A stretch of DNA of 64,000 nt from Eledone cirrhosa (Eukaryota), in assembly GCA_964016885.1 (NCBI GenBank), contig OZ024740.1, positions 412,982,001 to 413,046,000 of the forward strand, given 5' to 3'. A program made the translations under genes and the position numbers. The notes under the pieces were generated by a model that was given only the letters and a program-made list of their open reading frames with translations, was not told where the DNA came from and did not search any database. Each line of letters begins with the position of its first letter. Position 1 is the stretch's first letter. This document shows positions 1 through 45,965 of this stretch, in pieces.

Positions 1-558
1 CTGTGAAATGTCTGTGTGTTCAATTATGTAAGTCATTAGTTTCTGTTGTGTGTATTTATTGCCGTGCATTTGTTTTTCTGGGGGTGGGGTGTGGTTCTGC
101 TATTTTCTTGTCGTTGTTGCTGGGTGTGTGTGTTTTGTTGTTGTGTTTGCGATGTTGGTGCTTGTGGTGGTGGTGTTGAAGGTGTTATTGTTGGCGGTGG
201 GGTTGTCGCCGGTGGTGATGGTGGTGCTAGTGAGGGTGGTGATGGTGTTGGTGGTGTTGCTGCTGTGAGTCTCTTTGCAGTAGCCTTTTTTCATTTCTTT
301 CCTCCTTTTTCGAAGACGACGATGCGCTGCTTCTGCGTTTGTGCCTTCTTACGACATTTTGCCATCCCTCTCCCACCTCCAACTCCATATCTGATTTTGT
401 GAGGTCGGGGAGGGGTACCAACTACACTCTTTCACTTGTTGTTGTTGGTGATGTTTGCAGTGGAGTCTCTGTTGCAGCTGCAGATGTTATTACTGTTGTT
501 GTTGTTAATACTTCCACTGCTGCTGCTGTTCTTGATTTCCCTGGCGTTGGTATGGGTG

Positions 559-1910
559 CTACGAACCTATCGTTCCTTGTTGCCGCTTGTCCTGTTGCTG
601 GTAGCCGTGAAGCCGGTTTCGGAATGAGGGGGTTTTCTCCTTTCTCAGGGTCTTCTCGTTGTAGAAGGACCTGAGGTGAGTCTTCGATCCACAGCGAAAG
701 CATTTCGGGCGTTTGCCCTCAACACTTATGGGCAGTTGAATGCCGTTATCGAAGTCTATCACATCCGGGATAGCTTCGATGCACTCCTGGTTGGTTTGGA
801 TTAACATCTCAATGGAGGTGCCGACCCAATCTTCTCTTACTCTTTTCTGTACTTGCAGTACAGTTGTTTTGTCCTCGATTCCGACGAGGACAGATGCGGC
901 CATCCCGGGGGAGGGGGGGACGTGGGTCAGTTTGACCCTCACAATTTTTGCTCGCAGTAGGAGGGCACCAACACCATTTCCTCGCTCCTTAGGGTCACCA
1001 AGGATTGAGTTTTTGCCTCCTGGGGTGTGGCAAAAAGCACGTATACGGTGGCATATTTCTTGCCTCAGGTCATGTGCGTTTTCCGCTGCCACACAGACCC
1101 TAAGGCTTTTTGTATTTGAGCCTCTATGGCTCTTTCAAACCTACGGGATTTTGTACTCACTGTACGGTACGTGACCGTACAGTGCTGTTGGGTTTTGAAA
1201 AAGTTTTCGGCTGCCTTGCAGATTGCTCGGTGTCAGGTTTTCGTCGCCATCTTCTTCGCTTCATCTAATTCCTCATTTGTTATGAGGATGGTTTCCAGGT
1301 TATTTGCGATACCTGCAAACGAGATTGGTTTTTCTTTGCTTCTGTTCTTGTTGTTGTTGTCTTCAGAGCTGCTGTTACTTTTGTTGTTGCTGCAAGTACT
1401 ACGACTACTGCCGCCGCCGCTGTTGCTGTGATTGTTGTTGTTGTTGCTGCTGCTGCTCTTGTTGTTGCTGTTGCTGCTAATGCTGTTGTTGTTTATGCTG
1501 CTGCTGATGCTGTTGCGGCTGCTACTGTTGTTGTCCTTGTCACTGTTGCTGCTGTTGCTGTTATTACGGCTGCTACTGCTATTATTCCTGACGTCAGACG
1601 AATGAAATGGGTTTTTGTATTGCCCGCATACCTTTTTCGTCGTTGTCGTCGTCGTCGTGGAGAAATCTTGCACGCTTTGCACGTGATTTTTCTTTTCTGG
1701 CGTCGCTTGCGAAAGGGAAGGGAGGGAGAGAGACACATTTAGAGAAGGGAGGGAGAGAGACACATTTAGAGAAGGGAGGGAGAGAGACAATTTTTTCTCT
1801 GCTGTAGTGACGATTGAGGAAGAAGAAGACTGAATGAGTGGGAGTGACTTGTGAAAATTCTTTTTCGTAGCCATGTTTTTTTTTTGGTTTAAAATAAATA
1901 TTGGGCACAA
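559..1910 (-). pseudogene. Disrupted ORF1 (gag-like; N/S low-complexity N-terminus, degenerate zinc knuckle CFRCGSKTH)
   Basis: Two ORF-track fragments separated by stops/frameshift; CxxCxxxxH motif whose last Cys is missing. Confidence 0.65.
1714..1789. repeat. 27-bp tandem repeat x~2.8 inside ORF1 (encodes SLSLPSLNV on -)
   Basis: Unit agagaagggagggagagagacacattt seen directly. Confidence 0.9.
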
Positions 1911-2090
1911 AACCCCAATAAGCGGTTATTTAACCCCGAAGGGCCAAATAACGGGCAGAAAGACCCCTCTCACGAGGAGGAGGTTGCTTTTGTCAACAAT
2001 TTGGTTAAAGTTTTAAACAATTTACAATGGTTATAGCGGTCAAAATTTACAATACCTTACAGAGCCGAGCCTCCGTCCACCATAGCATTC

Positions 2091-2120
2091 AATAATAATA
2101 ATAATAATAATAATAATAAT
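2091..2120. repeat. (TAA)n microsatellite between Tx1-like and R4/Dong copies
   Basis: Direct sequence. Confidence 0.95.
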
Positions 2121-2142
2121 TAAAAAAAAAAAAAAGAAAAAC

Positions 2143-4532
2143 CTGCAAATGGAAATCCCCAGGAAAAGACAAAATACAAATGTTTTGGATAAATGCCTTC
2201 ACAGAGTCTCATGAGCTGTTAGCCTAACTTTACAATTAAATAATTAAGGTACCAGAAAAGATACCATCATGGCTACTTAACAGCATTACATTCTTGCTTC
2301 CGAAGAATGATGAGACAAACAATCCCAAAAATTACAGACCGATAACTTGCTTGACCACAATGTATAAAATTTTAACATCAGTCCTAACTGAATATACATA
2401 TGACCACCTGATAACAAATGACCTATTTCCCATTGAGCAGAAAGGGTGTAAACGAGGCTCATATGGCTTTAAGAATCAGCTTTTGGTTAACAAAATGATC
2501 TGGAAGATTGTCATAATAGACACAAAAATCTATCAATTGCTTGGATAGATTATAAAAAAGCATTCGATAGTTTGGCACACAGTTGGATTGAAAAATGTTT
2601 AAAGATTTTCAAAATACCTCCCGTTGTCAGGAGGTTTTTGTCGTTCAGTATGAAGACATGGAAAAGGACACTCCTTTTGAATAGTGAAACAAAATCACTG
2701 GAAGCTGGAGAAGTTAATATTAATTGTGGAATTTTTCAGGGTGACTCTTTATCACCGCTTTTATTCTGCATCGCACTTATACCATTAAGTAAAATGCTCA
2801 ATGAAACAAAACATGGATATAAAGTCTATGACAAAACCATTAATCACTTGTTCTACATGGATGCCCTGAAACTATTTGCAAAAAATGATGTACAATTGCA
2901 AGGGCTATTATCCACTGTGGGGCAGTTCAGTGATGACATTAAAATGGAGTTTGGACTAGATAAATGCGCCAAATCAACGTTCACCAGAGGAAAGCTGCTG
3001 AAAAGTTCAGACATTAATCTTGATCGGGGGAATGTGATAAGAGAACTTGATCAAGAGGAAACTTACAAATATCTAGGTGTTTGTGAAGGAGACGAAATCA
3101 AGCAATCCACAATGAGGGAAAGGATAAGGAAGGAATGTTAACGCAGAGTAAGCGCAATCTTAAGAACGGAATTGAATGCAAGGAATAGGATCGATGCCAT
3201 AAACACGCTTGCCATACCAGTAGTAACCTACAGTTACAATGTCATCAACTGGTCAAGCACAGAGATCCGTAGGCTCGATACAAAAATTCGAAAATACTTA
3301 ACCATGCACAGATGCATCACCCTAGAATATATCTCACTAGCAAAGAAGGAGGACGTAGGTTAATCCAGTTAGATATTGCGTTGAAAACTGCAACAATTGG
3401 ATTATCTACATATCTAAGGGAATCACAAGATTGGATGATCAAACTCGTTTTGAAACACGAAAGCATCAAAAGATCATACTCCATTACAAAAGATGCACAA
3501 AGATACAGTAATGGACTACAAATATCAGAAGTCCCATTTACTGCTGAAATGGTAAACACAGAAAAAGCAAAGCAGGAAAAAGTAACTGCAAAGAAAGAAC
3601 TGCTACAGAAACTGGCTAAGAAATGGCAAGAAAAGCCTCTGTATGGAAAATACCCAGAACGAGCTAACAATCCTGATGTTGACAAAACTTTAACCCATCA
3701 GTGGTTGGCATCCTCTGGACTGAAATCGGAGACTGAAGGACTGCTTATGTCAGCACAAGATCAGTGTCTGCCAACAAAAATTTACGAAGCCAACATAATA
3801 AAAAATGGATGCAGCCCATTATGCCGTGTAGGTAAAAAACAAGCAGAGACCATTGACCATATAATTTCAATGTGCAGTCCTATAGCTCCAACAGAATACC
3901 TAAACAGGCATGACTGATTTGCACAATACATACATTGGATAATGTGTAAGCATTTTGACCTGCCCCATCAAAAGAATTGGTGGGAGCATCAACCACCTCC
4001 CATACTTGAAAAAGATCACATCTCAATCTTGTGGAACTTTAGCATCCAAATAGACCGAAAAATAGATGCAAATAGACCTGATATAATATTGAAGGACTTT
4101 AAAAAGAGGGTATGCCTACTAATTGATATGTCCGTTCCAATAGACAAGAATGTATCTATAAAAACATTTGAAAAATTGAGCAAGTATAAGGACCTGGAGA
4201 TAGAAATTGAAAAAATGTGGAAATTGAAAACTAAAACAATACCAGTGGTTGTAGGCTCTCTAGGAATGATACCTAAGGGGTCTAATGATTACTTATCTCA
4301 AATCCCAGGAAACCGCGTATAGGAGAAATACAAAAGATAGTACTAATGGGAACTGCCCATATACTAAGGAAGATTCTGTCAATATGAGTACATCACAAGT
4401 CTAAAAACCTAAAGATTCATGTGTGAGTATGTATGTTCTTTCTTGAACATGGCGGACCTTGTTGTCTCTTGAGGTCACTGGTTGTGACTTGGTGATAACT
4501 CGTATGAACATAAAGCAAGATAAATGCAGTTG
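2143..4532 (+). mobile_element. R4/Dong-clade LINE family A, 5'-truncated and degraded (RT + CCHC + REL endonuclease)
   Basis: Fragments NYRPITCL, GIFQGDSLSPLLF, LFYMDAL, RHD, RPDIILKD..IDMSVP..KLSKYKDL; 3'UTR ends gcaagataaatgca followed by (TAA)n. Confidence 0.9.
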
Positions 4533-4699
4533 TAATAATTATAATAATAATATTTAAAACAATTGTGATAAAATAATTGTTATTACAAATGGAACATAAG
4601 ATACCAGTCATACTCTCAGGAAGTGACACGCATCACATTATGGCATAGGGCTCCAATATTTAATATTTAATTTTATATCAGAAATTTTGTAGTCAAAAA

Positions 4700-5440
4700 A
4701 GAAAGTAGTTACGAACAACAGCCAAATAATTTCACCACCAACACCACCACCGCCACCACCACCATGACCACTACCACAAAAAATCTAACCAGGCTACATC
4801 ACCACCGCCTACTATCCTACCACCACCACCTACTATCCTACCACCACCGCCACCACTGTATCATCGCTACCACCACTATTCCCCCACTGCCTCCTGTTAT
4901 AGGAGAGGGATGGTGGTAGTGCCACTACAGAGAATAAGCGAGTAAGGCATCAAAAGATATAAATAGACTGATTTAGTGAGCCTTGACAAACAGCTAACAA
5001 CAACAACAACACAAAAATAATTATTGTTGCTGTATCTCTAAACTCTAAACTCTCTCAAAATGTTTAGTTTAAACGATGTCAAATCTAAACTATAAAATAA
5101 TAATAATAATTGTTTCTACTTTTGGCACAAGGCCAGCAAAATATCCAGTATATTACTGGTACTTTATGTTATCGACCCCGTAAGGATGAAAGGCAAAGTT
5201 AACCACGGCGGGATTATAATATAATAATATAATAATAAGCAACAAGTCGAAAGATTATAGAACAGAACACAAGAAAATGGTTACGAAGAACAGCCAAATA
5301 ACTTCACCACCAACAACACAACCGCCGCCACCACCATCACCACTACAACAAAAACATCTAGCCAGGCTGCAGCAACACCATCAATATAGTACTACTATCC
5401 CACCGCCACCACTGCATCAGCGCTACCACCACTACACACA
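4700..5440 (+). repeat. Two diverged copies (~4700-5000 and ~5255-5440) of a (CAC)-rich unit, also related to ~7100-7400
   Basis: Shared gttacgaa.aacagccaaataa.ttcaccacc..ccaggct; gag.aaggcatcaaaa.atata.atagact at ~4940 and ~7370. Confidence 0.6.
5108..5215 (-). mobile_element. tRNA-derived SINE, 3' portion
   Basis: Matches the fuller copy at 44780-44965; its (ATT)n tail merges with a microsatellite. Confidence 0.8.
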
Positions 5441-5454
5441 TGAATGAATAAATA

Positions 5455-6636
5455 CATTCAGAGAGTAAGGAGCGTATTAAAATCACATCTGTCTATTATT
5501 AGGTACAGTGCGGTAAATCTGAGATGGAATGTTGCTGAACAAAAAGAACTGGATAGAAGACTAGGAAGCTATTGACTATCTACAACATGTTCCACAAGAG
5601 GAGTGATGTTGATAGACTCTACTTAAAGAGATCTGAAGGTGGAAGAGATCTTATCAGCATAGAGGACTGTGTTCAGATGGAGAAAAACAACCTACGTGAC
5701 AAATAGTAGGGAGCCAATGCTCAGAATTGTACTGAAGGAGAGGACAATAGACCAGGGGATGTCCAAGGAGGAAATAACAACAAGGAGAAAGAGCAACCTT
5801 CCTGAAAAATCCATTCATAGTACCTTCTTTGAGAAAACTGAATTTAGAGATCCACAGACATGGAACTGGTTGAAAAGAGGAGACCTTAAAAAGGCTACAG
5901 AAGGAATGCTAATGGCTGCGCAAGAGCGGACCCTCAAAACGAAGTGGGTGAAATACCATATTTACAAGGAGTAGGCTAGCCCACTGTGTAGGATCTGTAG
6001 AGAGAAGAGACTGTGGCTCACATTGTATCTGAGTGTAAACACCTAGCCCAGACTCACTATAAAGGATGGAGACATGATGTGATAGGCAGGGTGATCCACT
6101 GACACCTATGCAAAGTAAACAATTTACCACATTCTGAGAAGTAGTATGAGCATAAGCCAGAGTCAGTGATAGAAAACGATCAGGTGAAGGTGCTGTGGGA
6201 TTTTAGGATACAGAATTTTAGGATACAAGAAACTGGAACACAATAAACCTGACCTGGTGGTTTTGGACAAGGAGAAAAGATCGTGCATGATTGTGGATGT
6301 AGCCTGCCCATTCGACACAAGAGTGCAAGAGAAGGTGAGGGAGACAATTAACCGATACCAGGACTTAAAGTGGGAGGTAAAAAGGATTTGGAACTCCCAT
6401 GAAGTCAATGTGGTCCCGATTGTCATAGGCGCACTAGTAACTATTTCAAAGAGTTTCCAAGGATGGTTAAAGAAAGTTGGTCCCGCCCCGCTTTTTGGAA
6501 CAGTTCAAAAGGCATGCTTGCTGGGAACAGCAAGAACCCTCCGATACGTTTTGATATCTGAAGCTGCAGGGAGTGGCTTGATATTCATTTCAACAAACTT
6601 TGCAGTTAAATAACATCAATGACTGAGACTCAAAGA
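5455..6636 (+). mobile_element. R4/Dong family B, 3' fragment (degraded)
   Basis: Close match to 10065-11290 including the 3'UTR aacatcaatgactgaga.tcaa; followed by long (TAA)n. Confidence 0.92.
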
Positions 6637-6654
6637 ACAATAATAATAATAATG

Positions 6655-6693
<39 letters not shown>

Positions 6694-6715
6694 GTATAAT
6701 AATATAATAATAATA

Positions 6716-6750
<35 letters not shown>
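6637..6750. repeat. (TAA)n microsatellite
   Basis: Direct sequence. Confidence 0.95.
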
Positions 6751-7645
6751 GGGAAGAAGACGCACGAGGTGGTAGAAGGTCATGAAATCGCTCCCGTAAG
6801 TTTTGAATTTTTAACATATTTAAATCATTTGTGAAATAACAACTCTTAGTACAAATGCTACGTAAAGCACCCGGCTTGAGCCCCAAAAAATTCGGACCCA
6901 AAATATATTGTTATAAGGCTCAAATATTCAAATATTCAACTTTGTATTGTACACTGTATATCCCCCCCCCCCCAAAAAAAATGGCTATAAATGGAAGAAG
7001 AAGACCCCCCCCCCTCCTCTCCTCTGGCTACACTATATAGGACAGCTAAACTCACCAACACCAGAAGCTAGATACACCACCCACCCCATCATCTGTGTAC
7101 ACTAAACACAACAGCATTTTCACCTTCACCGCCACCGCTCACTACGGCCATCATTACCACCACTATCCCATCACCGCCGCCACCACCCCTTGACTCCTTC
7201 ACTGCTGCTGCCACCGCTACAGCACCATCACTACAGTAATACGGTCGCATATCGCCACCACTGCCTCGGTATCGACATCACCACCACCACCACTGTCTCA
7301 GTATCGCCAACGCCGCCAGTCTCTGCTGGCTGCCACTTCCACATTATAGAATTCCTACTACTAACAAAGAGGAAGGCATCAAAATATATAGATAGACTCA
7401 AAAGAAAAAAGAAAAAACAAACAACAAAACCAAAGCAGCACAGCAACAACAGCAAAAAACGAGAAAAACAAACAGAGAAAAACAAAAACAAAAAAAGAAA
7501 CCCCCAAAACGTAAAGAAAATAAGAATGAAGAGAGAAGCAGGCGGACGGACAGAGAAGAGGGGGGAAAAAGTAAAACTTAAAAAACAAAAACTAAGTCAG
7601 ACATTCGAATACTACATTACAATGAAACTTATGCTTATTCATTTT

Positions 7646-10600
7646 TGGGGCCCTTTCTGCCCGTGTGTTTGTTTGTTTATGTGTGTCCGTATACAGCGTG
7701 GTGATAATGCCACACAAGGGCCAAGTGGGATGGCGGATCCACAGATGGCTATGTAAACATACATTCGCCAATCCTCGATAAGAGTGTTTAAATATCGAAC
7801 ATAAACAGTTCGAATAACGGTGAAATGGAGACTAGAACGTCATGTGACAGACTCTCACCCAACAGGTGCCCCCTGGCTCAGCAGCAGGAACCTGACTGTC
7901 AACCAAATACTGCTGATGTTGGAGGAAGAAGAAGAAGGAAAGGGGCCAGAACCAACTGGACGAAAGAATTGAATAGAACTGTTATGCAATGCTACCTGAA
8001 AAGTAACCCCAAGGAGAGGGGCTACAGGAGACGGATGCATAACATCTGGAACGAGATTGGTTTATTTAAATTAGATGAACAAAAATTGGCCGGGCAGGCT
8101 CGGGTAATAAGAACTAATGGGTGGATAAGCGAGCTGGAACTGGAGGAACTGAGCAGAGAGAATGGCTTGGAGATGGCGGGTGTAGTATGCCAGACAAGCG
8201 AGCCGGCGGGAAATGAAGGTGAGGAGGTCCTGAGAACGGAGGAACCACCCGAAGCAGACAATGATCTGAATACTGAGATAAATAATACCTGGAACAGAGA
8301 TACGGCCACTGAGGAGATGAATGCTGACGGGCTAGGACAAGATTCGGTTGACATCCTAAATTTAGTGGTAGATGAGTTGAACAATGATAGTGGGAGACCT
8401 ATGAACCTAAGATTTGTAGACAGGAAAAAGTTAAAAGAAACAACAGCTAGGGTAAACAAAGTGATCCCATACCTTGAGGCGAGGAGTCTTCACCAGTGCA
8501 ACAATATCCTCAAAGCAACAGCAAATACGGTGAGGAAACTACTTGGTATAAAAGCGAGAGGAAACAACAGACAAGAAAGAGCAGAGCCGTGGTGGAAGAA
8601 GCGACTGAGTGGGCAAATCGGGGAAATGAGAAATGACATAGGAAAGCTTGAGTCACTACTGAATGGGACACTAAAAAACATAGGCACTAAAAATAGACTG
8701 GAAATAAAATACAAAACTAGGAGTAAAAAGCTAAATATTATCATAGAGGAATTGAAGCAACGCATTGTAGCAAAGAGTGCCAAAATCAGGCGATACGAGA
8801 ACAGAGTCAGTCAGTATAAACAGAACCGCATGTTCGACAACAACCAGAAGATGCTGTTTGGACAGCTTGAGGGGAAAGAAAGAGGCAACGACTTGATCCC
8901 TGGGGCGGAACAAGCTAAAACATTCTGGAGAGGAATATGGGAGCAGGATGTTAGACACAATGTCCAGGCAGGGTGGATTGAGACAGTACAGAGGGAGATC
9001 GGTGAGCAGGCACAACAACAGACTGATTTGAGTATCACAGTTGAAACTCTTAAGGGGCAAGCCAAAAAACTAACCAACTGGAAATCACCAGGCCCAGATG
9101 GTGTGCAGGGGTATTGGATTAAACATTTAACATCCCTCCACCCGAAGCTGACGGCCATGTTCAATGACTGCTTGGTGTCGGGTGAGGTGCCAGAGTGGTT
9201 GACAAAAGGTACCACAGTTCTGATAATGAAAGACCGAATCAAGGGTAATGATGTTACCAACTATAGACCTATCACATGTCTGCCCGTAATGTGGAAACTG
9301 TTGACGAGCATTGTGTCTGAGGAAAACTACCATCACCTCCACACAAACAACTTGTTACCGGACGAACAGAAAGGATGCCGAAAGAAGTCACGTGGTACAA
9401 AGGACCAGTTGCTTATTGATAAGATGGTAATGGGGAATTGCAGGAGGAGACACACTGATCTTGCCATGGGATGGATAGACTACAGAAAGGCATTTGACAT
9501 GGTGCCTCATTCCTGGATCACCAAAAGCCTGGAGATATTCAGGGTGGCAGATAACATCAGACAGTTGCTGGGCAGGAGTATGGGGTCCTGGGAGTCAGAG
9601 TTGACATCAACTGGAGTATCCTTGGGAAGCGTGAAGATCAAGAGAGGTATCTTCCAGGGAGATAGCCTGTCCCCTCTGTTGTTTGTCCTTGCCCTGATGC
9701 CCTTGACCATTATGCTGCGAAAAGTGAGAGCAGGATACAAGTTTGGAAGGGGAGAGCTTACCATCAATCACCTCCTCTTCATGGACGATCTTAAGCTCTT
9801 CGGGAAAAGTGAGAAGGAGTTGGATGTGCTTGTTGACACTGTCCGTATTTTCAGCAGTGATATATGTATGCAGTTTGGTATTGGTAAATGTGGAGTCATT
9901 GTGATGAGGAGGGGTAGGTTGAGCAGAAGTAACGGGATCCAGATACCAACAGGTGAGATGATAAAGGAAATTGACTCTGAGGAAGGATACAAGTATTTGG
10001 GCGTTCTGGAGGCTGATGGCATAAAGAACAAAAAAATGAAGGAATTGTTAAGAACTGAATACATTCGGAGAGTAAGGAGCGTATTGAAGTCACATCTGAA
10101 CAGCAGAAATGCCATAAGCGCAGTAAATTCCCGAGCTGTGTCTATTATTAGGTACAGTGCGGGAATTCTGAGATGGAATGTTGCTGAACAAAAAGAAATG
10201 GATAGGAAGACTAGGAAGCTATTGACTATCTACAACATGTTCCACAAGAGGAGTGATGTCGATAGACTCTACCTAAGGAGATCTGAGGGTGGAAGAGGTC
10301 TTATCAGCATAGAGGACTGTGTTCAGATGGAGAAAAACAACCTATACAAATACGTGACCTATAGTAAGGAGCCAATGCTCAGAGCTGTACTGAAGGAGGG
10401 GACAGTAGGCCAGGGGATACCCAAGGAGGAAATAACATCAAGGAGGAAGAGCAGCCTTAAGGGAAAATCCCTTCATAGTACCTTCTTTGAGAAAACTGAA
10501 TTTAGAGATCCACAGACATGGAACTGGTTGAGAAGAGGAGACCTCAAAAAGGCTACAGAAGGAATGCTAATGGCTGCGCAGGAGCAGGCCCTCAAAACGA

Positions 10601-11292
10601 AGTGGTTGAAGCACCATATCTACAAGGAGGAGGCTAGCCCACTGTGCAGGATCTGTGGAGAGAGAGAGGAGACTGTGGCTCACATTGTGTCCGAGTGTAA
10701 ACACCTAGCCCAGACCCACTATAAGGGCTGGAGACACGATGTGATGGGCAGGGTGATCCACTGGCACCTGTGCAAAGTAAACAATCTACCACATTCTGAG
10801 AAATGGTATGAGCATAGGCCAGAGGCGGTGATGGAGAACAGTCAGGTGAAGGTGCTGTGGGATTTTAGGATACAGACGGACAAAAAACTGGAACACAATA
10901 GACCTGACCTGGTGGTTGTGGACAAAGAAAAAAGATCGTGCCTGATTGTGGATGTGGCCTGCCCGTTCGACACGAGAGTGCAAGAGAAGGAGAGGGAGAA
11001 AATTAACCGATACCAGGACCTAAAGTGGGAGGTGAAAAGGATTTGGAACTGCCATGAAGTCAAAGTGATCCCGATTGTCATAGGCGCACTGGGGACTATC
11101 TCCAAAGGTTTCCAGGGATGGTTAAAGAAAATCGGCCCCTTCACGCTTTTTGGAACGCTTCAAAAGGCATGCTTGCTTGGAACGGCAAGAACCCTCCGAT
11201 ACGTCCTGAATATCTGAGGCTGCAGGTAGTGGCTTGATATTCAATCCAACGGACTTTTCAGTTAACCAACATCAATGACTGAGATTCAAGGA
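7646..11292 (+). mobile_element. R4/Dong family B, apparently full-length non-LTR retrotransposon
   Basis: Single intact ORF, structured 5' leader, short 3'UTR ending in (TAA)n. The 5' boundary is approximate. Confidence 0.88.
7825..11217 (+). CDS. Reverse transcriptase / CCHC zinc finger / restriction-like endonuclease polyprotein (R4/Dong clade), 1130 aa
   Basis: NWKSPGPDG, NYRPITCL, GIFQGDSLSPLLF, LLFMDDLK (RT); CRICGEREETVAHIVSEC; RHD; RPDLVVVD..VDVACP..EKINRYQDL (PD-D/ExK). No stops. Confidence 0.96.
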   Translation: METRTSCDRLSPNRCPLAQQQEPDCQPNTADVGGRRRRKGARTNWTKELNRTVMQCYLKSNPKERGYRRRMHNIWNEIGLFKLDEQKLAGQARVIRTNGWISELELEELSRENGLEMAGVVCQTSEPAGNEGEEVLRTEEPPEADNDLNTEINNTWNRDTATEEMNADGLGQDSVDILNLVVDELNNDSGRPMNLRFVDRKKLKETTARVNKVIPYLEARSLHQCNNILKATANTVRKLLGIKARGNNRQERAEPWWKKRLSGQIGEMRNDIGKLESLLNGTLKNIGTKNRLEIKYKTRSKKLNIIIEELKQRIVAKSAKIRRYENRVSQYKQNRMFDNNQKMLFGQLEGKERGNDLIPGAEQAKTFWRGIWEQDVRHNVQAGWIETVQREIGEQAQQQTDLSITVETLKGQAKKLTNWKSPGPDGVQGYWIKHLTSLHPKLTAMFNDCLVSGEVPEWLTKGTTVLIMKDRIKGNDVTNYRPITCLPVMWKLLTSIVSEENYHHLHTNNLLPDEQKGCRKKSRGTKDQLLIDKMVMGNCRRRHTDLAMGWIDYRKAFDMVPHSWITKSLEIFRVADNIRQLLGRSMGSWESELTSTGVSLGSVKIKRGIFQGDSLSPLLFVLALMPLTIMLRKVRAGYKFGRGELTINHLLFMDDLKLFGKSEKELDVLVDTVRIFSSDICMQFGIGKCGVIVMRRGRLSRSNGIQIPTGEMIKEIDSEEGYKYLGVLEADGIKNKKMKELLRTEYIRRVRSVLKSHLNSRNAISAVNSRAVSIIRYSAGILRWNVAEQKEMDRKTRKLLTIYNMFHKRSDVDRLYLRRSEGGRGLISIEDCVQMEKNNLYKYVTYSKEPMLRAVLKEGTVGQGIPKEEITSRRKSSLKGKSLHSTFFEKTEFRDPQTWNWLRRGDLKKATEGMLMAAQEQALKTKWLKHHIYKEEASPLCRICGEREETVAHIVSECKHLAQTHYKGWRHDVMGRVIHWHLCKVNNLPHSEKWYEHRPEAVMENSQVKVLWDFRIQTDKKLEHNRPDLVVVDKEKRSCLIVDVACPFDTRVQEKEREKINRYQDLKWEVKRIWNCHEVKVIPIVIGALGTISKGFQGWLKKIGPFTLFGTLQKACLLGTARTLRYVLNI

Positions 11293-11599
11293 ATAACAAT
11301 AAAAATAATAATAATAATAATAATAATGTTTTCTTTATTAACCACAAGGGTTTACATACAGTAAAACATTAAGGACAGTACAGGACAATACAGGACGGTA
11401 CAAATGGGCATTTCTGCGTGTAAAAAAACAGAGGATGTAATAAATAACAAAGAAAAATCCCCCACTAGGGGGGAGAATTCCGAGGGACATTTGTGGAGAA
11501 AGCCCATTAAAAGACCACAGTGACCCTGACCACCAGGGCAAGTGCCCTCTCCCAGTTTTCCACCTTTAATTTACAGACACATACTCAGAGAAGGCCCAT

Positions 11600-14543
11600 T
11601 CATTCGGGTCTATTTGCTTCTCTCACCCATCTTTCAACAAAATGCTGGGAAGAGAGCACTTCCCTCTCTACCCTGATTTTCCTTTTCAAATGAAATTTGA
11701 AAAAGTTAATCAGGGCATCACCGAAGAGGTAAGTGCTCGTATTCAGCCCTTTCAAACGTGTCCACCATACTATCTCTTTCGCCATGGCCACCAGACAGAT
11801 AAAAACTGCCTGCCCTTCCCGGCTAAAGGAAGAGGGCGGGGAAATCCTCACGATGGACTCAGCTGATAGCCGGATTCGTCCTACACGTGACAGCAGGTGT
11901 TCGACATAAACCCACAAGTCAGCAATGCTCGGACACTGGACGAGTGCGTGCAGGACGGTTTCGTCGCCCTGTGCGCATCTCGGACATGCCCGGCTGACGG
12001 CACCTCCATGCCTGTAGAGTTTATCCCGAACTGGCAAGGCTCCTCGGTAGCACTGCCAGGCCAGAGATTTCTGGAAGTTGTACATAGGCCCCGGCCCGAA
12101 AGTCCGTCCGAAGAGATTGGCTAGTTGATTTTCGTCGACGCCTAGAGTTTCCCCAAGTACGTCGTCGCTCTTCCCCTCCACTAATCCTCTATAGAACACC
12201 AAGGTGGAGTTTCCACCGATCACATTGCCCGATTGGTCGAGGGCTGTGAGCGCCTGAAGACATTCCAGTCTCCAAGCGCTCCCTTTCGGTCTTCGCTTGT
12301 CCCAGAACTGCAGCTCCGTCAAGGAGACGATCTGGGGAAAGACGTGTCTTGCAAACGGCGACCACACCTGATCACCATCGAGGAAGAAGTAAAGATGTCG
12401 TAGCTTGAGCGCATGTCTGCGCATCATCAGCCACGGCATGCCCAGCCCTCTACGTAGCGGGTGTTGATAGCAGATGGACCGCATGACCATCGGAGCGCTT
12501 CCGTTCCACAAAAAGCGAGAGAGAAAACGCTCCAGGGCTGTCAGGCGGGGCATAGGACAAGGTACGACGGTCAGTCGGTAGTAGATGACGGACGCGATGT
12601 ACGCGTTAGCCACCTCCGCTCGACCTTTCAGGGATAGCTTCCTCTCCGCCCATACTGGGTGAGAGAAGCCACCCTGCTCGTCACCTCGTCCCAGTTTTTG
12701 TCCGTCTGGAGGTCCGGACCGAACCAGACCCCTAGAAATTTAACCGCTCCGTCCGTCCAGTGCCCGACGAAGCTGTTGGACGGCATGGACCTGCCTCTCA
12801 GGTGCCGAATTGCAGGCCCAGTGACTTTTCCTAGTTGATCATTGCTCCTGTCACCGCTTCGTATTCTCTTAGTGTAGTGCCGATCGCCTCGATGTGTTTG
12901 GCGTTCGACACCACTACGGTGACATCGTCCGCATATGCTGACACAGATATTCCGCATCCTAGTTCGCGCGGGACGCCCCTCAACGTCTTCAGTTTGTGCA
13001 GTAATGGCTCGAGAGTCAATACGTACAAGAGGGACGAGAGGGGACATCCTTGGCGCACGGAGCGCATGATGTTCAACAGTTCCGAAAGGTGACCGGTCAC
13101 TCTGACCATAGAGCAGATGTCGCTGTGCAGGGCAGCGATCCAGCCTCTGAAGACGGGCCCAAAGCCAGCCGCCCTCAGGACTGCCGCTAGGTAACGATGG
13201 TCGACCCTATCGAAAGCTTTCGACTGATCTAAATTGATCAAGGACCCTTCCGTGCCATGTTCCCTAGCTAATCTCTCTACCGTGTATCGCATAAGGTGGA
13301 GGTTGTCGTGGATGGATCTGTCGGGAATGGCGCACGTCTGTGCCTCTCCCACCATACATTCAACGACAAGCGCCAACCTCTTTGCTCGCACCTTGGTCAA
13401 AATCTTGAACTCTGTGTTTAGCAGAGTTATGGGCCTGAAATTATCTATGTTATCCCCCTTGTTCCGATCCTTTCGCAGCCGCACCACTGCTCCTCGGCTC
13501 ATAGAGCTGGCAATCCTCCCGTTCTGTTGCCAGTTGCAGTAGACGTCCGCCAAGAGGCCTCCGAACAAGTCTGGCATGTGTACGTAAAATTGATAGGGCA
13601 GACCATCCAAACCAGGCGATTTACCCCTTTTGCTGCCAGTCATTGCCTCCCGTACTTCAGCGGCTGTTATCGGCTTTTCGCAAAACCCAGCCTCAGTGGC
13701 CGAGAGCTGCGGCAGTCCGTCGAAGTAGACACTAAAGTCCATCCCTCGATCCGACCCGCCGCTGCCCCCGAACAGCTGTGCGAAGTGTCGCTGAAAAGCT
13801 TCACACATTTTCCCGGGATCGAGTAGCATGCGCCCGTCGTGGTCCACCAAAGACCGTATCGTGGCTTTGTTGCCACGACGCGCCTCCGCCACTCGGGCCC
13901 ATTGAACGGCTTTCGTCCCCTCATGTCTGAGTGCACGCACCATAGCTCTGACAAAACAGCCTTCGTGCTTTGCATTGAAGAATTGGTCAAGGGACAATTT
14001 CGCCAATCGGTACCTGTCAGACAGTTCAAAACGCCTGAGCAGGCTGGTGAGACTCTTGCACCCTCCTCCCCTATCCGCTAATCCCACATAGTCCCATCAT
14101 GCATCTAAGATCCCGTTCCAGTCGCCCACTAACACTATAGAGTGGGACGTTCCAAGAAAGGTCTCCAGACGCCGGAAGAAATCAGGGCGCCCTGCTCCTG
14201 TCGGGGCATAGATGGTCACTAGCCTGAAAGCTTGCCCGACTCCACTGGTCACGTCCAGCACCACCAACTTACCTTCTGGGTCCAGGAAGATGGACCGTAT
14301 GGCGAGATCCAAACTTCTCCGAAAAAGCACAGCAACTCCTCCCCACGATCCAGGACGGCTGGGAGATGCGTACACATCGTAGCCGCCGAGGATCGGTGCG
14401 AAGGCCCGTGCTTCGGAGATTCTGGTCTCGCTGATGGCCACTACATCTATGTTTAGTGACCTGAGGTCGTTGAGCAGGTGGCCCTGCTTCCATGACGACC
14501 CCAAACCACGCGCATTTATGCTGCCTATTCTGAGTGAGGTCAT
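11600..14543 (-). pseudogene. ORF2: AP endonuclease + RT + C-terminal zinc-binding domain; stop, frameshifts and an internal deletion
   Basis: SINARGL, ISET, IYAP, GDWN (APE); KSPGLDG, FRPITLLN, DQSKAFDRV, VRQGCPLS, AYADD (RT); CPRC..HALVQC. The end of the APE domain (SDH region) is missing after DRYRL. Confidence 0.9.
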
Positions 14544-14897
14544 GTTGAAATGGAGTGGAAAAGATGGGAACGACCACTTACCTTACTTGTCGTAGAGGAA
14601 GAATGGTTTGTCCATCCTTCTCAATGCTTGTGGCCTCCTCCGGAAGGATGTCCTTATAAATCCTCCTGGAGAATGTTTGTCGGAAATCTCCGATGTCTTT
14701 GGGGAATTTTTGTTTTAGTGTCGTGGATGTTTTCAGTGTGATGCGAGTGATTTGTATGTGTGGAGGAGGTGTGAACTTTTGGGATGTTGTGTAGTCTTTT
14801 TCTGTGATGCTGGTGTTGTGTTGGATGTAGTGTAATAATTGGTTGTTGTTCAAATTTAATGCTGTGTAGTGTGTATCGTTTTGGTTGTTTTGTTTTT

Positions 14898-16526
14898 TTA
14901 TTGCGTTTGTTGTGTGTTTGTTTCTGTTTCGCTTTTTGGTGACTTTCCTGGTGTAGGTGATGGTGGTGTTGGGGTTAATGATGGTGATGGTGTTGGTGTT
15001 TGTGGTGATGGGGTTGGTGATGCTGCTGTGGATGGTGGCATATCTGTCCTAACTTTTTTGTTTGATTGTTTATTTGTTTCCCTCTGTATTTTGTTTTTGG
15101 AGGGGGAAGGAAGAGAATTTTTTCTTTTTTGGTTTCTTTTTTTCTTTATTCCTGATACAGTTTCCCACTCCTCGTCGTCACAATCTGTCTCCAGTTGTGA
15201 TAGGCCGGGGAGTGGAAAATCCTCCACAGGCGTTAGTTTTGGTTGTGGCGTGGTGGATGGTGTAGGCGCTGGTGCTAGTTCTAGCGCTTTGGGCGGTGGT
15301 GGTGTTGGTTTTGCTACTGTTGCTGGGGTTGTTGCTATTACAGTTGCTTCTGTTGTTGCTGCAACAGTTGTTGCTGCCATCTCTGCTGCTGGTGGTGTTG
15401 ATGGTTGAGTCACTGGGGTGGGTAAGAGAGGCGGCCTCAACCTTTAAGCCTGAGGGAAGAAAGCCCTTAGGTGGGTTCCTTCACCTCAAACGACACACCT
15501 AGGCCTTCTGCTCTCGACGATTACGGTGAGGTGGCTGCCGTCAGTGAGGTCTATTACCTCTGGGATCTCCTCAATGCTTTTTTGGTCCGCTTGGCTCATG
15601 AGCTCCATCCCTGATCCGGACCAGTACTCCTGCTTTTCTTTCGCTATTTCGATTATCTTGGTGTTGGGTTCGATGCCGGCGATGACGGCAGCAATTAGCC
15701 AGGGAATTTCGATCGCAGGTGGAACGTGGGTGACCCTGATCTTTACGAGTCTCTGGCCCCAATAGCTTGGGAATAGTGTGAAGTCGTCACTTCTTAATGG
15801 GGCCATGGAGTATTCTCTAGCCTCCTGTGGTGTTTCAAAGAACACGTCCACGGTTCCATATTTCTGTCCACGTCTGATGTGGGTTTTTTTTGCCCACACA
15901 TGTCCCAAAGCTTTTGGGATTTGGGACTCGGATGCCCGTTCCACTCGGTGCGATTTTATATTAATTGTTCGATAAGACACGGTGCATAGGTGTCGATGCT
16001 CCATTTAATTAGGTGTGTGGGGGGGGGGCTGACCCTGTACCCATCTTTCTTTACCATTTTTTGGCTTCTTCTAATTCCTCCTGAGTTACATGAAATGCTT
16101 CGCACTGTTTTGCTCCTCTGGCAAAACTCAGGGTGGTTTTCTTAATGTCATTGTTGCTGTTGTTGTCATCGTTATTTTTGTTATTATTAATTTTTGTTTC
16201 AGTTGTGGTTGTGGTGGCGTCAGTGGTTTTCGGTGTGGAAGAGTTCATTTTGGTTGAATTCATTTCGATATCACGAGTTTTTATTTTTTATTTTGTTTCT
16301 GTTGTCGCTGTGGTGGTGGGGTGGTGGTTGTCGCGGTGGTGGTGGTGGTGGCGGCTTTAACACCTGCAGTCATTGGTAATGGCGGGAAATGAATGTCTGC
16401 CTGAGACAAATTTAAAATAGTGCTACTGCTTATATTTTGAGTGTTGGCAAACGTAGTAATATTTACAATGGTGGTGTCGGTGTGAGGTGTTAGTTTGTGA
16501 GGAAGGTGTGACTTTGAGTCGTCCAT
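14898..16526 (-). pseudogene. ORF1 (gag-like), fragmented
   Basis: Fragments 16281-16526, 16051-16263, 15486-16004 and 14898-15440 lie upstream of ORF2 and are homologous to 559-1910; Pro/Thr-rich, WETVSGIKKKR. Confidence 0.7.
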
Positions 16527-16740
16527 GATTTTTCAAAGAAAAATCTCTGTGTGATAATTTTAAAAGTTTAAATTTTGGGCTCAAGACCCCAATCTTTTTT
16601 AGTGTCCTTTTCAGAAAACAATGTATGTGCACCTATATACAGTTAACGATAAAAATATTCCATAAAGGGTAATTTTAAACAACTGAAAATAACAAACCTT
16701 TGCGGAGCTCACGGTGATACGATTTACTACGTAGGTCGCC

Positions 16741-16756
16741 AATAATAATAATAATG

Positions 16757-16796
<40 letters not shown>

Positions 16797-16808
16797 TAAT
16801 AATAATAA
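16741..16808. repeat. (TAA)n microsatellite
   Basis: Direct sequence. Confidence 0.95.
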
Positions 16809-17544
16809 AGAGGAGAACTTAAAAAGGCTACAGAAGGAATGTTAATGGCTGCGCAGGAGCAGGCCCTCAAAACGAAGTGATTGAAACACCACATTTACAA
16901 GGAGGAGGCTAGCCCACTGTGCAGGATCTGTGGAGAGAGAGAGGAGACTGTGGCTCACATTGTATCCGAGTGTAAACACCTAGCCCAGACTCACTATAAG
17001 GGCTGGAGACATGATGTGATGGGCAGGGTGATCCACCCGCACCTATGCAAAGTAAACAATTTACCGCATTCTGAGAAGTGGTATGAGCATAAGCGAGAGT
17101 CGGTGATAGAAAACGGAGTTTAGGATCCAGACGGACAAGAAACTGGAACGCAATAGGCCTGACTTGGTGGTTTTGGACAAGGAAAAAAGATCATGCCTGA
17201 TTGTAGATGTAGCCTGCCCATTTGAGACGAGAGTGAAAGGGAAGGAGAGGGAGAAAATTGACCGATACCAGGACTCATGTGGGAGGTAAAAAGGATTTGG
17301 AACTACCATGAAGTCAGAGTCGTCCCGATTGTCATAGCTTCACTTGGTACTATCTCAAAGAGCTTCCAAGGATGGTTAAAGAAATTAGCCCAGCCCCGCT
17401 TTTTGGAACACTTCAAAAGGCATGCTTGCTGGGAAGAGCAAGAACACTCCGAAACGTCCTGAATATCTGAGGCTGCAGGTAGCGGTTTGATGTTCATTTG
17501 AACAAACTTTCCATTTAAATAACATCAATGACTGAGACTCAAAG
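16809..17544 (+). mobile_element. R4/Dong family B, short 3' fragment
   Basis: Matches 10535-11290; (TAA)n on both sides. Confidence 0.92.
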
Positions 17545-17556
17545 AATAATAATAAT

Positions 17557-19382
17557 CAAAAAATCACTGGAAGCTGGAGAGGGTAATATTAATTGCGGAA
17601 TATTTCAGGGTGACTCTTAATCACCGCTATTATTCTGCATCGCACTTATACAATTAAGTAAAATGCTCAATGAAACAAAACATGGATGTAAAGTCTATGA
17701 CAAAACCATTAATAACTTGTTCTACATGGATGACCTGAAACTATTTGCAAAAAATGATGAGCAAGTGCAAGGGCTATTATCCACTGTGAAGCAGTTCAAT
17801 GATGATATTAAAATAGAGTTTGGACTAGATAAATGCGCCAAAGCCCAGTTCACAAGGGGAAAGTTCCTGAGAAGTTCAGTCATTAATCTTGATCGGGGGA
17901 ATGTGATAAGAGAACTTGATCAAGAGGAAACTTACAAATATCTAGGTGTTTGTGAAGGAGACGGACTCAAGCACTCGACAATGAGGGAAAGGAAGTAATG
18001 TTTCCGCAGAGTAATGCAATCTTAAGAAAGGAATTGAATGCAAGGAATAGGATCGATGCCATAAACACGCTTGCAGTATCAGTAGTAACCTACAGTTTCA
18101 ATGGCATTAACTGGTCAAGCAGAGAGATACATAGACTTGATACAAACATTTGAAAATTCTTTACCAGGCACATAATGCATCACCCTAAGGTAGATACAGA
18201 TAGAATATATCTCCCTAGGAAAGCAGGAGGACGTGGATAAATCCAGTTAGATGTTGCTTGGAAAACTGCAACAATTGGATTATCTACATATCTAAGGGAA
18301 TCACATGATTAGATGACCAAACTCGTTTAGAAACATTAGAGCATCAAAAGATCATACTCTATTACAAAGGATGCACAAAAATACAGTAATGGACTACAAA
18401 TCTCAGAATTTCCATTTACTGCTGAAATGAAAAACACAGAAAACGCAAAGTAGGTAAAAGTAACTGCAAAGAAAGGACTGCTACAGTATCTGTCTAAGAA
18501 ATGACAAGAAAAGCCTCTGTATGGAAAATACCCAGAAAGAGCTTACAATCCTGATGTTGACAAACCTTTAACCCATCAGTGGTTGGCATCCTCTGGACTG
18601 AAATCGGAGACTGAAGGACTGATTATATCACCGAAGGATCAGTGTCTGCCAACAAAAAAGTATCAAGCCCACATAATAAAAAATGGATACAACTCATTAT
18701 GCCCTATAATAAAAAACAACCAGAGACCATTGATTATATAATTTCAATGTGCAGTCCTATAGCTCCAACCGAATACCTAACAGGCACCACAGAGCTGCAT
18801 AATACGTACATTGGATAATATGTAAGCATTTTGACATGCCCCATCAAAAGAATTGGTGGGAGCATCAACCACTTCTTGTACTTGAAAAAGATCACATCTC
18901 AATCTTGTGGAACTTTAGCATCCAAACAGACCGAAAAATAGATACAAATAGACGTGGATACTGAAGGACTTTAAAAGGTTGGTATGCCTGCTAATTGATA
19001 TGTCCGTTCCAATAGACAAGAATGTATCTATATAAACATTTGGAAAATTGATAGAAATTGGAAAAATGTGGAAGTTGAGAACTAAAACAATACAAGTGGT
19101 TGAAGGCGCTCTAGGAATGATACCCAAGGGGTCTAATGTTTACTTATCGCCAATTCCAGGAAACCCGCGTATAGAAGAAATTCAAAAGATAGTACTAATG
19201 GGAACTGCCCATATACTAAGGAAGATTCTATCAATATAAGTACATCACAAGTCTAAACACCTAAAGATGCATGTGTGTGTGTGTATGTTCTTTCTTGAAC
19301 ATGGCGTATCTTGTTGTCTCTTGAGGTCACTTGCTGTGACTTGGTGATAACTCGTATGAACATAAAGCAAGATAAATGCAAC
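17557..19382 (+). mobile_element. R4/Dong family A, 5'-truncated and degraded
   Basis: Colinear with 2690-4532 (LFYMDDLK; same 3'UTR); (TAA)n on both sides. Confidence 0.92.
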
Positions 19383-19563
19383 TATAATAATAATAATAAC
19401 TGATAACTAGTTATCGCTCTACATGGCTGAATACAATAAATGTTATTTGAGTGGCTCATTCAACTGGCATGGCTTATAAAAGAGCCTGTTTGCATAATTG
19501 CAAACGTATCGAATTGTATTATTAATATTGGAAAAACTCAGATTACATGTATATATATATATA

Positions 19564-20710: not shown

Positions 20711-20805
20711 TCATGCATTTTATAGATAATGATATATACATATATATATATGTAAAATAAACTAAAATAAATAAGTCAAATATTTAAAATTTGACTTCGT
20801 TTATT

Positions 20806-20860
20806 ACTGCTATATATATTTCGGTGACAGCCATCTTTGGCTGTGACCTCTTTAGGCAGT
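20806..20860 (-). ncRNA. Hammerhead ribozyme copy with mutated core (CTAAAGA)
   Basis: Reverse-complement partner of 22381-22435. Confidence 0.65.
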
Positions 20861-22380
20861 CCGAATTAGTGTGGTAGAGACGAGTACACATGTTGTTGAG
20901 GTGTTTCACTTTGTCAATACTCTGATATGCCCAGTTCCTGGTTGGGTTGTTATTTCACTGAGGAACTGGAATCATATGAATTTAAACAAACGAATTTCAG
21001 CATCAAAAGACATCTTCTCATCCCATTGGTCAGTTGTGAGAACATTCCTCAGTCAAAAGTCTATAGAAATTCGTTCGGAGGCGAGGCAATCTGTAGTGGT
21101 TGTTCCTGTTATTGTTAAGTACATCTGACCTCTACTCTTATGTTGGTAGTGGTGTTGGTGTTGTAGACAGCTCAAAAAAAGGATAAAGTGGTAGAAGGAA
21201 TAAGATGGTAAACGAATAAAATAAAATAACATAATCAAATAAAATTGTGCCATGCATAAGAAGAAATAGAAGGTAATAAAATGAAGAAAATAGAAAATAA
21301 ATGTAAAATAAAAATGAAGATTCAAATAAAATAAAATGTGTGTATGTTATAACCAATCTCAAAGTTAGAAAGATTTGTAAGGTCACTCCTCCCATTGGTC
21401 AGTTGTGAGAGCATTCCTCAGTTAAAAGTGTATAGAAATTCTTTCTGGGGTGAGGCTACCTGTAGTATTTGTTTTTGCTATTGTTAAGTACATCTGACCT
21501 CTACCCTTATTTTGGTAGTGGTGTTGGTGCTGCGGTCAGCCTATGTCTTGCTGCTGCTGACATTAAGAAGTATCTGTGTGTGTTTGTTATAACACACACA
21601 TTTTATTTTATTTGATACTTGATTTATATTTTTCATTTATTTTTTATTTTCTTCATTTTATTGCCTTCTATTTCTTTATATGCATGGCACAACCCCCACC
21701 CACTCCCACCACCACCACCACGAGAAATGGTGCCAGCTTAGATGAAAAAACACACACAGATACTTCTAAAAGTCAGCAGCAGCAAGACCTGGGCTGAACG
21801 CAGCACCAACACCACTACAAAAATAAGGATAGAGATCAGATGTACTTAACAATAGTAAAAACAAACACTACAGGAAGCCTCATCCCAGAAAGAATTTCTA
21901 TAGACTTTTGACTGAGGAATGCTCTCACAACTGACCAATGGGAGGAGTGACCTTACAAACCTTTCTAGCTTTGAGATTGGTTATAACACACACAAATTTT
22001 ATTTTATTATCTTATTTTATTTCATTCTTTTACCATCTTATTCCTTCTACCACCTTATCCTTTTTTTGAGCTGACTCCAACACCAACACCACTACCAGCA
22101 TAGGAGTAGATGTCAGATGTACTTAACAATAGCAAGAACAACCACTATAGATTGCCACGTCTCAGAACGAATTTCTATAGACTTTTGACTGAGGAATATT
22201 CTCACAACTGACCAATGGGATGAGAAGATGTCCTTTGACGCTGAAATTCGTTTGTTTAAATTCATATGATTCCAGTTCCTCCGTGAAATAACAACCCAAC
22301 CAGGAACTGGGCATATCAGAGTATTGACAAAGTGAAACACCTCAACAGCATGTCTACTCGTCTCTACCACAATAATTCGA

Positions 22381-22435
22381 ACTGCCTGAAGAGGTCACAT
22401 CCAAAGATGGTTGTCACCGAAATATATGTAGCAGT
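22381..22435 (+). ncRNA. Minimal type I hammerhead ribozyme
   Basis: actgc-CTGAAGA-ggtcaca..tgtcacc-GAAA-tatatgTA-gcagt: stem I actgc/gcagt, stem II, short near-palindromic stem III. Confidence 0.85.
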
Positions 22436-22581
22436 AATAAACGAAGCCAAATTTTAAATATTTGATTTATTAATTTTAGTTTATTTTACATTACTCCGGA
22501 GTAACCAAACCAACCTACGCACTTCATCGAGTGGTCCAATCTGCACACTGAAGTGTAGTATACAACCAACATAGTCTCAAA

Positions 22582-40361: not shown

Positions 40362-40432
<71 letters not shown>

Positions 40433-45925: not shown

Positions 45926-45965
<40 letters not shown>

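Follow-up and report, generated by a model that had tools for sequence, protein, structure and literature searches.

L1/Tx1-like and R4/Dong-like retrotransposons lie on opposite strands at shared TAA repeats of a cephalopod locus

The window, meaning the whole 64,000-nt stretch of Eledone cirrhosa DNA that was analyzed (contig OZ024740.1, without any N), begins with a cluster in which R4/Dong-like elements on the plus strand and L1/Tx1-like elements on the minus strand adjoin TAA-type repeats. The features are as follows.

1–2090, minus strand: Tx1-like family A, 5′ UTR and broken ORF1, the remainder beyond the window; ORF1 pieces 40–57% identical to family B ORF1, with a degenerate CCHC knuckle
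2091–2120, plus strand: (AAT)10, perfect; 5′ flank for both Tx1-like A and Dong A1
2121–4532, plus strand: R4/Dong-like A1, 5′-truncated and broken; RVT_1 match, ~45% aa identity to B2
4533–4552, plus strand: degenerate TAA tail belonging to A1
4553–5454, no strand assigned: non-LINE spacer of 902 bp, containing a tRNA-type SINE 3′ half (5092–5215, minus strand) and CAC-rich degenerate repeats
5455–6638, plus strand: R4/Dong-like B1, 5′-truncated and broken; 5′ end without TAA
6639–6750, plus strand: (AAT)38, imperfect
6751–7791, no strand assigned: spacer and/or B2 5′ UTR, up to 1041 bp, without a TAA run; the B2 5′ boundary lies somewhere here
7792–11291, plus strand: R4/Dong-like B2, intact single ORF and 3′ UTR; Myb-like N-terminus (lead), RT, CCHC, RHD, PD..D nuclease
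11292–11327, plus strand: (AAT)12, imperfect; the B2 tail, which also flanks Tx1-like B at its 3′ end
11328–16740, minus strand: full-length but inactive copy of Tx1-like family B; ORF1 (broken), APE N-half, RT, zf-RVT, 3′ UTR
16741–16808, plus strand: (AAT)22 including two G variants; flanks Tx1-like B and Dong B3 at their 5′ ends
16809–17544, plus strand: R4/Dong-like B3, 5′-truncated and broken
17545–17556, plus strand: (AAT)4 separating B3 from A2
17557–19383, plus strand: R4/Dong-like A2, 5′-truncated and broken
19384–19399, plus strand: (ATA)5 tail of A2, the end of the cluster
43830–44772, plus strand: third Tx1-like fragment, a 3′ end in which 353 bp are duplicated internally

The sequence-only reading had described a continuous array of ~19 kb, which overstates the arrangement. 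LINE coding sequence is absent from 4553–5454 and 6751–~7790, so that non-LINE spacer interrupts the array over ~1.9 kb together, and the 5′ ends of B1 and B2 are without TAA; no TAA run of even 2 units occurs in 6751–7830. The unbroken LINE-TAA chain covers 7792–19399 (~11.6 kb, 4 elements), with further blocks at 1–4552 and 5455–6750. AAT-strand runs total 321 bp in the window, of which 276 bp fall in 1–19400.

Five R4/Dong copies of two families, all on the plus strand and ending in (TAA)n, had been proposed; a TAA-phase repeat was found at the 3′ end in 5/5 copies, but A1 (20 nt, imperfect), B3 (12 nt) and A2 (16 nt) have only short or degenerate tails. A1 and A2 share 88.8% nucleotide identity and the B copies 86–88%, and families A and B are ~45% identical in amino acids, with no blastn match between them. 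The open frame of B2 spans 1141 codons, stop to stop, and the elements combine RT with a C-terminal CCHC, RHD and PD..D nuclease in a single ORF (B2) without an APE, the restriction-like Pfam matches in this ORF being weak and under the cut-off. The RT is nearer to R2 (E 2e-29) than to L1 (1e-12). Only one CCHC, at the C-terminus, is present in the B2 ORF, which appears to have no N-terminal zinc fingers; residues 40–135 had Myb_Rap1 as best atlas match (0.85), as a lead only. The R4/Dong clade call is made from domain content, the 120 listed homologues including no named B. mori Dong or Ascaris R4 reference. Judged by codon-aware stop counts (tblastn stop counts against the B2 protein are inflated by frameshifts), the Dong copies differ in decay, and B2 is both the youngest Dong and younger than Tx1-like B. 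Segmental duplication as the origin of the five copies was rejected because their truncation points, order and decay all differ. Searching 1–21000 against Rfam at E up to 1 yielded no ribozyme (HDV-like included) or RNA gene, the B2 5′ end being uncertain within 6751–7791. A more distant RLE element at 29790–31480 sits outside TAA.

The minus-strand elements belong to the L1 group (L1/Tx1), as judged by the order of APE, RT and cysteine-rich domain together with RT affinity. On the minus strand of Tx1-like B, Pfam placed Exo_endo_phos, RVT_1 and zf-RVT in that order, the best structural match of the APE was the human L1 endonuclease, and the RT of the closest relative (P0002) matched human L1 ORF2p at E 1e-50 vs 1e-24 for R2. 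Protein searches returned no named Tx1 member (Tx1L, Keno, Kibi, Koshi), and the 45 rows in the RT tree are either unnamed or labelled by host alone. Tx1-clade ORF1 carries an RRM-like domain and a CCHC knuckle, unlike mammalian L1-type ORF1. The ORF1 of the Tx1-like elements gave no Pfam match and RRM_1/zf-CCHC as atlas leads (0.87–0.89), and its CCHC knuckle is degenerate in both window copies and intact in a sister lineage. Tx1-like B has lost ~120 codons spanning the C-half of the APE, and its 3′ end lies 6 nt past AATAAA. Mapping of reads and contigs over 11290–16770, minus 11290–11340 and 16734–16770, revealed a multi-copy family, with depth in 30/30 bins in each of 4 sequencing runs, a set that excludes runs X4 (share 0.06) and X9–X11 (share 0.00).

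The sister lineage consists of Tx1-like loci (L001–L041) in animal-like DNA within two bacterial MAG records, 44% identical in amino acids to the window Tx1-like elements and joined to them in the RT tree with clade support of 99/99. It shares with them a homologous ORF1 bearing the CCHC knuckle and a tail-less end: in 56/56 distinct ends, the 3′ terminus directly follows AATAAA and carries neither ATT nor poly(A). It differs in forming head-to-tail arrays, mostly with a period of 6.4–6.8 kb and with junctions lacking ATT; a target duplication of 14 bp was seen in one dispersed copy. In the 530 kb formed by the 41 overlapping sister loci, no ATT/AAT run of 4 units was found. A protein-pattern scan confirmed 68/76 candidates in prokaryote genomes, all of the sister lineage and in the two MAG records, 0/140 in metagenome contigs and 0/48 in viral contigs, and exact DNA patterns from the Tx1-like 3′ end had no match in metagenome and viral contigs. 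Given that family B likewise ends just past AATAAA, the ATT beside it is more plausibly a target than a tail.

All three visible Tx1-like ends adjoin AAT runs (2091, 11327 and 16741), as the sequence-only reading had noted, and do so in one phase; in the sense of the element, both 5′ junctions read ATT|G and the sole visible 3′ junction reads C|ATT. The repeat directly at the 5′ end measures 30 nt in family A and 68 nt in family B, and in both the stretch touching the element is pure repeat for 15 nt or more. These two junctions constitute real evidence, since neither a self-made 3′ tail nor a later Dong insertion can create such a stretch there; the counter-reading raised beside the original claim, in which the repeat is only a tail or was brought by Dong, thus misfits both. 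The 11327 junction cannot be counted as independent, as the youngest Dong, B2, ends there. The chance expectation was gauged from the start positions of perfect 15-nt runs in AAT/ATT phase: 12 among 44,585 sites beyond the nest and 112 among 63,985 across the window, equivalent to a background probability of 0.03–0.2% per junction. The third fragment shows two ATT units 7 nt past AATAAA, in keeping with an ATT target, followed by a SINE, and its 5′ break adjoins an RTE-like piece without ATT. ATT stands at the 5′ junction of 2/2 full Tx1-like 5′ ends and 0/1 truncated 5′ ends in the window; a target-specific Tx1 family is defined in PMC4494074 by >20% of its copies sharing one type of flanking sequence. 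Furthermore, in run X1 a collapsed contig of 443 nt, with a depth of 160 vs 22–28 in four other listed pieces, extends 31 letters beyond 16733, ~24 of them past the 5′ end of Tx1-like B, and this overhang, whose letters are masked, hints at a flank common to copies of the family.

The tRNA-type SINE served as a tail control: in the window, ATT follows 7/8 of its visible 3′ ends, and at least 3 ATT units are touched by 0/6 of its visible 5′ ends. The SINE was accordingly rejected as a second ATT-targeting element.

The proposal of a (TTA)n-specific Tx1 lineage is supported locally, in that both elements probably entered AAT runs that were already there, sharing one orientation and phase, opposite to those of Dong, but they represent two families (ORF1 40–57% aa) rather than copies of one. 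We consider it probable that octopod Tx1-like families prefer (ATT)n; their endonuclease would nick the (AAT)n strand and that of Dong the (TTA)n strand. This reading is based on two insertions at a single locus chosen for this very pattern. Both cuts would be made at TpA within the repeat, and the resulting duplication in whole 3-nt units would leave repeat on both sides; the target would thus stay open for either clade, and elements would pile up at the TAA repeat over time. The copies in the cluster do differ in age. The low background outside the nest, together with two families in the same strand and phase, counts for an ATT preference. As sister-lineage copies target one another in head-to-tail fashion without ATT, the preference would have arisen in the octopod branch. 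The APE specificity loop bears target choice, and family B in the window has lost the endonuclease part carrying it, so that no specificity is readable from that copy. In its broadest form, to which we give about even weight, an undescribed octopod Tx1-like lineage switched its APE from self-targeting tandem insertion to (ATT)n, and APE and RLE elements compete for opposite strands, making TAA microsatellites self-renewing landing pads for mixed LINE clusters genome-wide.

A less likely but serious competitor is a loose, L1-like taste for TpA in AT-rich DNA, under which common, flexible TAA runs at a tolerant, repeat-rich locus collected two insertions by chance. The TpA phase would be the outcome of any L1-type nuclease and fits this account, which also gains from the third fragment without 5′ ATT and the sister lineage without ATT use, both of which count against family-wide ATT specificity. 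Moreover, Octopus vulgaris has a large L1-Tx1 complement (80 families, 56 Mb, in the supplement table of PMC13282606), so some insertions in TAA runs are expected. Against it, (AT)n, which is also TpA-rich, is far more plentiful than (AAT)n in the window, yet both 5′ ends lie in AAT on the same strand, and the per-junction background is low.

We regard it as improbable that the (ATT)n is a tail produced by the Tx1-like elements themselves and that short ATT seeds attract Dong and then expand, the repeat being product rather than target. An ATT-tailed SINE is present in the window, B2 is younger than Tx1-like B, and RTE-type elements offer a precedent of tail-primed insertion at sites beginning with the tail unit (PMC6007223); however, an element inserted by tail priming has its 5′ end separated from the seed by unique sequence, as the SINE copy at 53830–54006 shows, whereas both Tx1-like 5′ ends touch pure repeat, and their relatives are tail-less. 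Least probable of all is a chain that is partly an artefact of assembly or recombination, with separate loci joined via TAA runs. Every joint in 7792–19399 is simple repeat, and no read or contig among the matches listed spans 11290–16770, but the window contains no N, the runs are short (12–112 bp), and the Tx1-like ends would carry repeat anyway, leaving the target question unchanged.

If the preference for (ATT)n is family-wide, it would extend the known Tx1 targets to a microsatellite made of A and T only, provide a natural pair of APE and restriction-like nuclease acting on opposite strands of the same duplex, and contribute to explaining why LINEs cluster in the genomes of cephalopods. 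The sister lineage, with its different target, would then offer a handle on how APE specificity shifts, a process called poorly understood in one review (PMC3812793). The mechanism of target-primed reverse transcription stays as known.

Among known systems, Dong of the R4 clade, found in insects, molluscs, cnidarians and ostracods, has an N-terminal Myb-like domain without N-terminal zinc fingers, RT, a C-terminal restriction-like nuclease and a (TAA)n target (PMC7998251 and PMC3812793), and Dong-R4 is abundant in Octopus vulgaris, covering 93 Mb (PMC13282606). The copies here share the single ORF, RT, nuclease and target, with the Myb-like N-terminus as a lead, and add nothing new except that 2/5 are without TAA on the 5′ side. 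For the Tx1-like elements, the accessible literature yielded neither an ATT-, AAT- or TTA-targeting Tx1 nor target sharing between Tx1 and Dong, although Figure 3 and the supplement of PMC4494074, Kojima and Fujiwara 2004, or Repbase may already list such a family. Kibi at (TC)n, Koshi at (TTC)n and crocodilian Tx1 at (TTCC)n/(TTTC)n, described in PMC4494074, demonstrate that the Tx1 clade evolves microsatellite targets; they resemble the present elements as APE-type, two-ORF L1/Tx1-group elements in a microsatellite, and differ from them in that the unit here is ATT/AAT, the host is likely an octopod and the putative specificity is based on two copies. Keno (Tx1, APE) and Utopia (RLE) reach the same U2 snRNA gene target in parallel (PMC4640811), likewise uniting an APE and an RLE element on one target; theirs is a gene, entered at the same site and in the same direction with identical 3′ flanks, whereas the present target is a microsatellite used on opposite strands, with both elements at one locus. 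SART and TRAS build arrays in opposite orientation within one simple repeat, the silkworm telomeric repeat (PMC10088271), and thus share with this locus two families and opposite orientations in one repeat; both are R1-clade APE elements at telomeres, whereas the nucleases here are unrelated and the microsatellite interstitial. Given that microsatellite-targeting Tx1, sharing between APE and RLE elements and sharing in opposite orientation are all published, the novelty lies in the target, ATT, alone.

Judged by domain content, the five plus-strand elements, which encode an RT followed by CCHC, RHD and PD..D motifs, would behave as R4/Dong-like elements, and the minus-strand elements as Tx1-like. 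The feature in the window is real, and the orientation and phase of both kinds of insertion were read directly.

2121-4532 (A1) and 17557-19383 (A2), plus strand: R4/Dong-like family A, the pair 88.8% identical in nucleotides
5455-6638 (B1), 7792-11291 (B2) and 16809-17544 (B3), plus strand: R4/Dong-like family B, 86-88% nucleotide identity
1-2090, minus strand: Tx1-like element, only 5′ UTR and ORF1 visible
11328-16740, minus strand: Tx1-like element with ORF1, APE, RT and zf-RVT
43830-44772, plus strand: third Tx1-like 3′ fragment, with two ATT units between it and a SINE

Both Tx1-like 5′ junctions read, in element sense, (ATT)n directly followed by G, with repeats of 30 and 68 nt whose initial 15 nt are perfect; outside the nest, such a 15-nt run on either strand begins at 12 of 44,585 positions, a post hoc background from one locus. 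In target-primed reverse transcription, no tail arises upstream of an element's 5′ end, and a run upstream of a truncated Dong 5′ end is target DNA rather than a Dong product. As a control, ATT follows 7 of 8 visible 3′ ends of a tRNA-type SINE (11 matches in the window), whereas at least three ATT units touch none of its 6 visible 5′ ends. Because the 5′ repeats can thus be neither tail nor Dong product, both Tx1-like elements entered AAT runs already present, and a repeat that was self-made or brought by Dong does not fit these junctions. The sequence-only reading had all visible Tx1 ends abutting the repeat; this holds for all three, but the end at 11327 is not independent evidence, since 11292-11327 is partly the tail of B2, probably a late arrival. 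The SINE itself has an A/B-box-like head and an (ATT)n tail (44778-44967), with ten further matches at 5110, 20596, 27893, 27978, 42106, 42404, 42585, 42764, 45386 and 53830; the 53830-54006 copy is flanked by a ~13-bp target duplication beginning with a tail unit.

Dong would prime on the (TTA)n strand and the Tx1-like APE on the (AAT)n strand, where a 3′ end at AAT would correspond to a TpA cut; the second cut would likewise fall at TpA, between ATT and G. TpA reads alike on both strands, so the target duplication would comprise whole repeat units, leaving repeat on either side. The L1 endonuclease habitually cuts at TpA, so a loose preference of the Tx1-like families for such steps stays a real rival, to which we give the lower probability. 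Specificity for (ATT)n is likely on the junction sequences, and we favor, with some confidence, an endonuclease that prefers the AAT microsatellite and nicks the strand opposite to Dong's.

As had been proposed, the five Dong-like copies form two families on the plus strand, and a TAA-phase repeat terminates all five. The reading frame of B2 stays open for 1141 codons; its RT is closer to R2 than to L1, and its N-terminus gives a Myb-like match (at 0.85) that is a lead. An N-terminal Myb-like domain is described for R4/Dong elements (PMC7998251). Codon-position counts indicate copies of unequal age: the private changes of B2 are third-position in 22/32 cases, with no stop, unlike the decay in B1 (16/31) and B3 (16/33), which also carry stops and frameshifts, and between A1 and A2, whose differences are spread evenly across codon positions (8, 12 and 13). 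B2 is therefore likely the most recent insertion among the copies. Elsewhere on the plus strand lie a more distant RLE-type LINE (29790-31480; 28-37% amino acid identity to Dong B) amid (CATA)n-rich repeats, with TAA at neither end and possibly another microsatellite target, and an N-terminal piece of a Dong-like ORF (43080-43410, within 43020-43830).

The two minus-strand elements, of the L1/Tx1 type, were found as proposed, but their ORF1s are just 40-57% identical and they are therefore separate families. The 11328-16740 copy is dead though full-length, with a stop at 14097, a deletion of ~120 codons that spans the endonuclease's C-terminal half, and single-base losses near 11610, 12654 and 12798 that are absent from 1044/1271, 9798/10931 and 1569/1885 reads of public run X12, respectively.

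A single continuous ~19-kb array was not borne out: two spacers interrupt it, and the uninterrupted chain spans just 7792-19399. LINE coding sequence is absent from 4553-5454 and 6751-~7790, TAA is absent at the B1 5′ end, and 6751-7830 lacks even a two-unit TAA run. Three CAC-rich degenerate units in the spacers (4690-5010, 5271-5434 and 7060-7450) are likely an older host repeat that received the LINEs. MITE- or foldback-like long inverted repeats with (AT)n at their borders occur at 20750-22491, 40126-40368, 59973-60309 and 45923-49312. In the last, the arms 45923-47050 and 48198-49312 (93.6%) enclose a 1-kb palindrome (47074-48110), and a short TAA run lies at 45964.

The 43830-44772 fragment is old and rearranged, its 5′ break meeting an RTE-like piece (43600-43830, plus strand) without ATT, and is thus weak evidence for or against ATT targeting. 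Searched with 11290-16770, repeat-bearing ends excluded, four of four public runs contain the family with its 5′ end. In run X1, a collapsed contig (443 nt, depth 160) extends ~24 masked letters past that end, a hint of a flank common to copies; a longer 5′ end in that organism would give an equal overhang. Neither metagenome nor viral contigs yielded a copy of the Tx1-like families in pattern scans.

Among the named relatives of the minus-strand RT, an Argonauta hians protein ranks first (67% identity); these two and two other proteins make up one clade (support 100/99), which points to a probable octopod host. A prokaryote-genome scan returned 41 loci at 33-44% identity, animal-like DNA inside two MAG records. 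Their lineage is sister to this clade (99/99) in an RT tree of 45 rows, composed of the window RT, 38 of 120 listed homologues, 5 of the 41 loci and, on a very long branch, a Dong sequence as outgroup. Forty loci occupy 17 contigs resembling animal DNA in one bacterial MAG record (a GTDB bacterial genome); the 41 include several intact Tx1-like families (ORF1 667 aa with CCHC, ORF2 ~1158 aa) in tail-less arrays, apparently inserted close to their own 5′ ends. The arrays are head-to-tail, with a period mostly of 6.4-6.8 kb. Their 3′ ends, 56 different ones spread over 16 contigs, all terminate right after AATAAA, with ATT or poly(A) at none; L041, which is dispersed, shows a target duplication of 14 bp. 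This evidence points two ways: a tail-less lineage favors ATT as target rather than tail, and the lack of any four-unit ATT run in 530 kb of these loci indicates that ATT use is not common to the sister clade. The limpet Patella caerulea has a Tx1-like cluster of 27 members (proteins P0091 and P0163-P0176) with near-consecutive locus tags, which suggests a tandem array there also.

In Octopus vulgaris, Dong-R4 and L1-Tx1 are both plentiful, with recent activity (PMC13282606). In the excerpts consulted, the targets named for the Tx1 clade are U2, a DNA transposon and the repeats (TC)n, (TTC)n, (TTCC)n and (TTTC)n, to which a figure legend adds U5, 5S and satellites (PMC4494074), and a TAA target is given for Dong alone (PMC3812793, PMC7998251, PMC3774820). 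An ATT-targeting Tx1 is absent from the corresponding portions of PMC3747384, PMC6007223 and PMC8869645, nor, Repbase and Kojima and Fujiwara 2004 aside, was any report of one found in the literature searched. Keno and Utopia are APE and RLE elements that arrived at one site in parallel (PMC4640811), resembling the APE-type and RLE-type elements on a common target in the window, and SART and TRAS lie in opposite orientation within one repeat (PMC10088271), as do the two kinds of element here.
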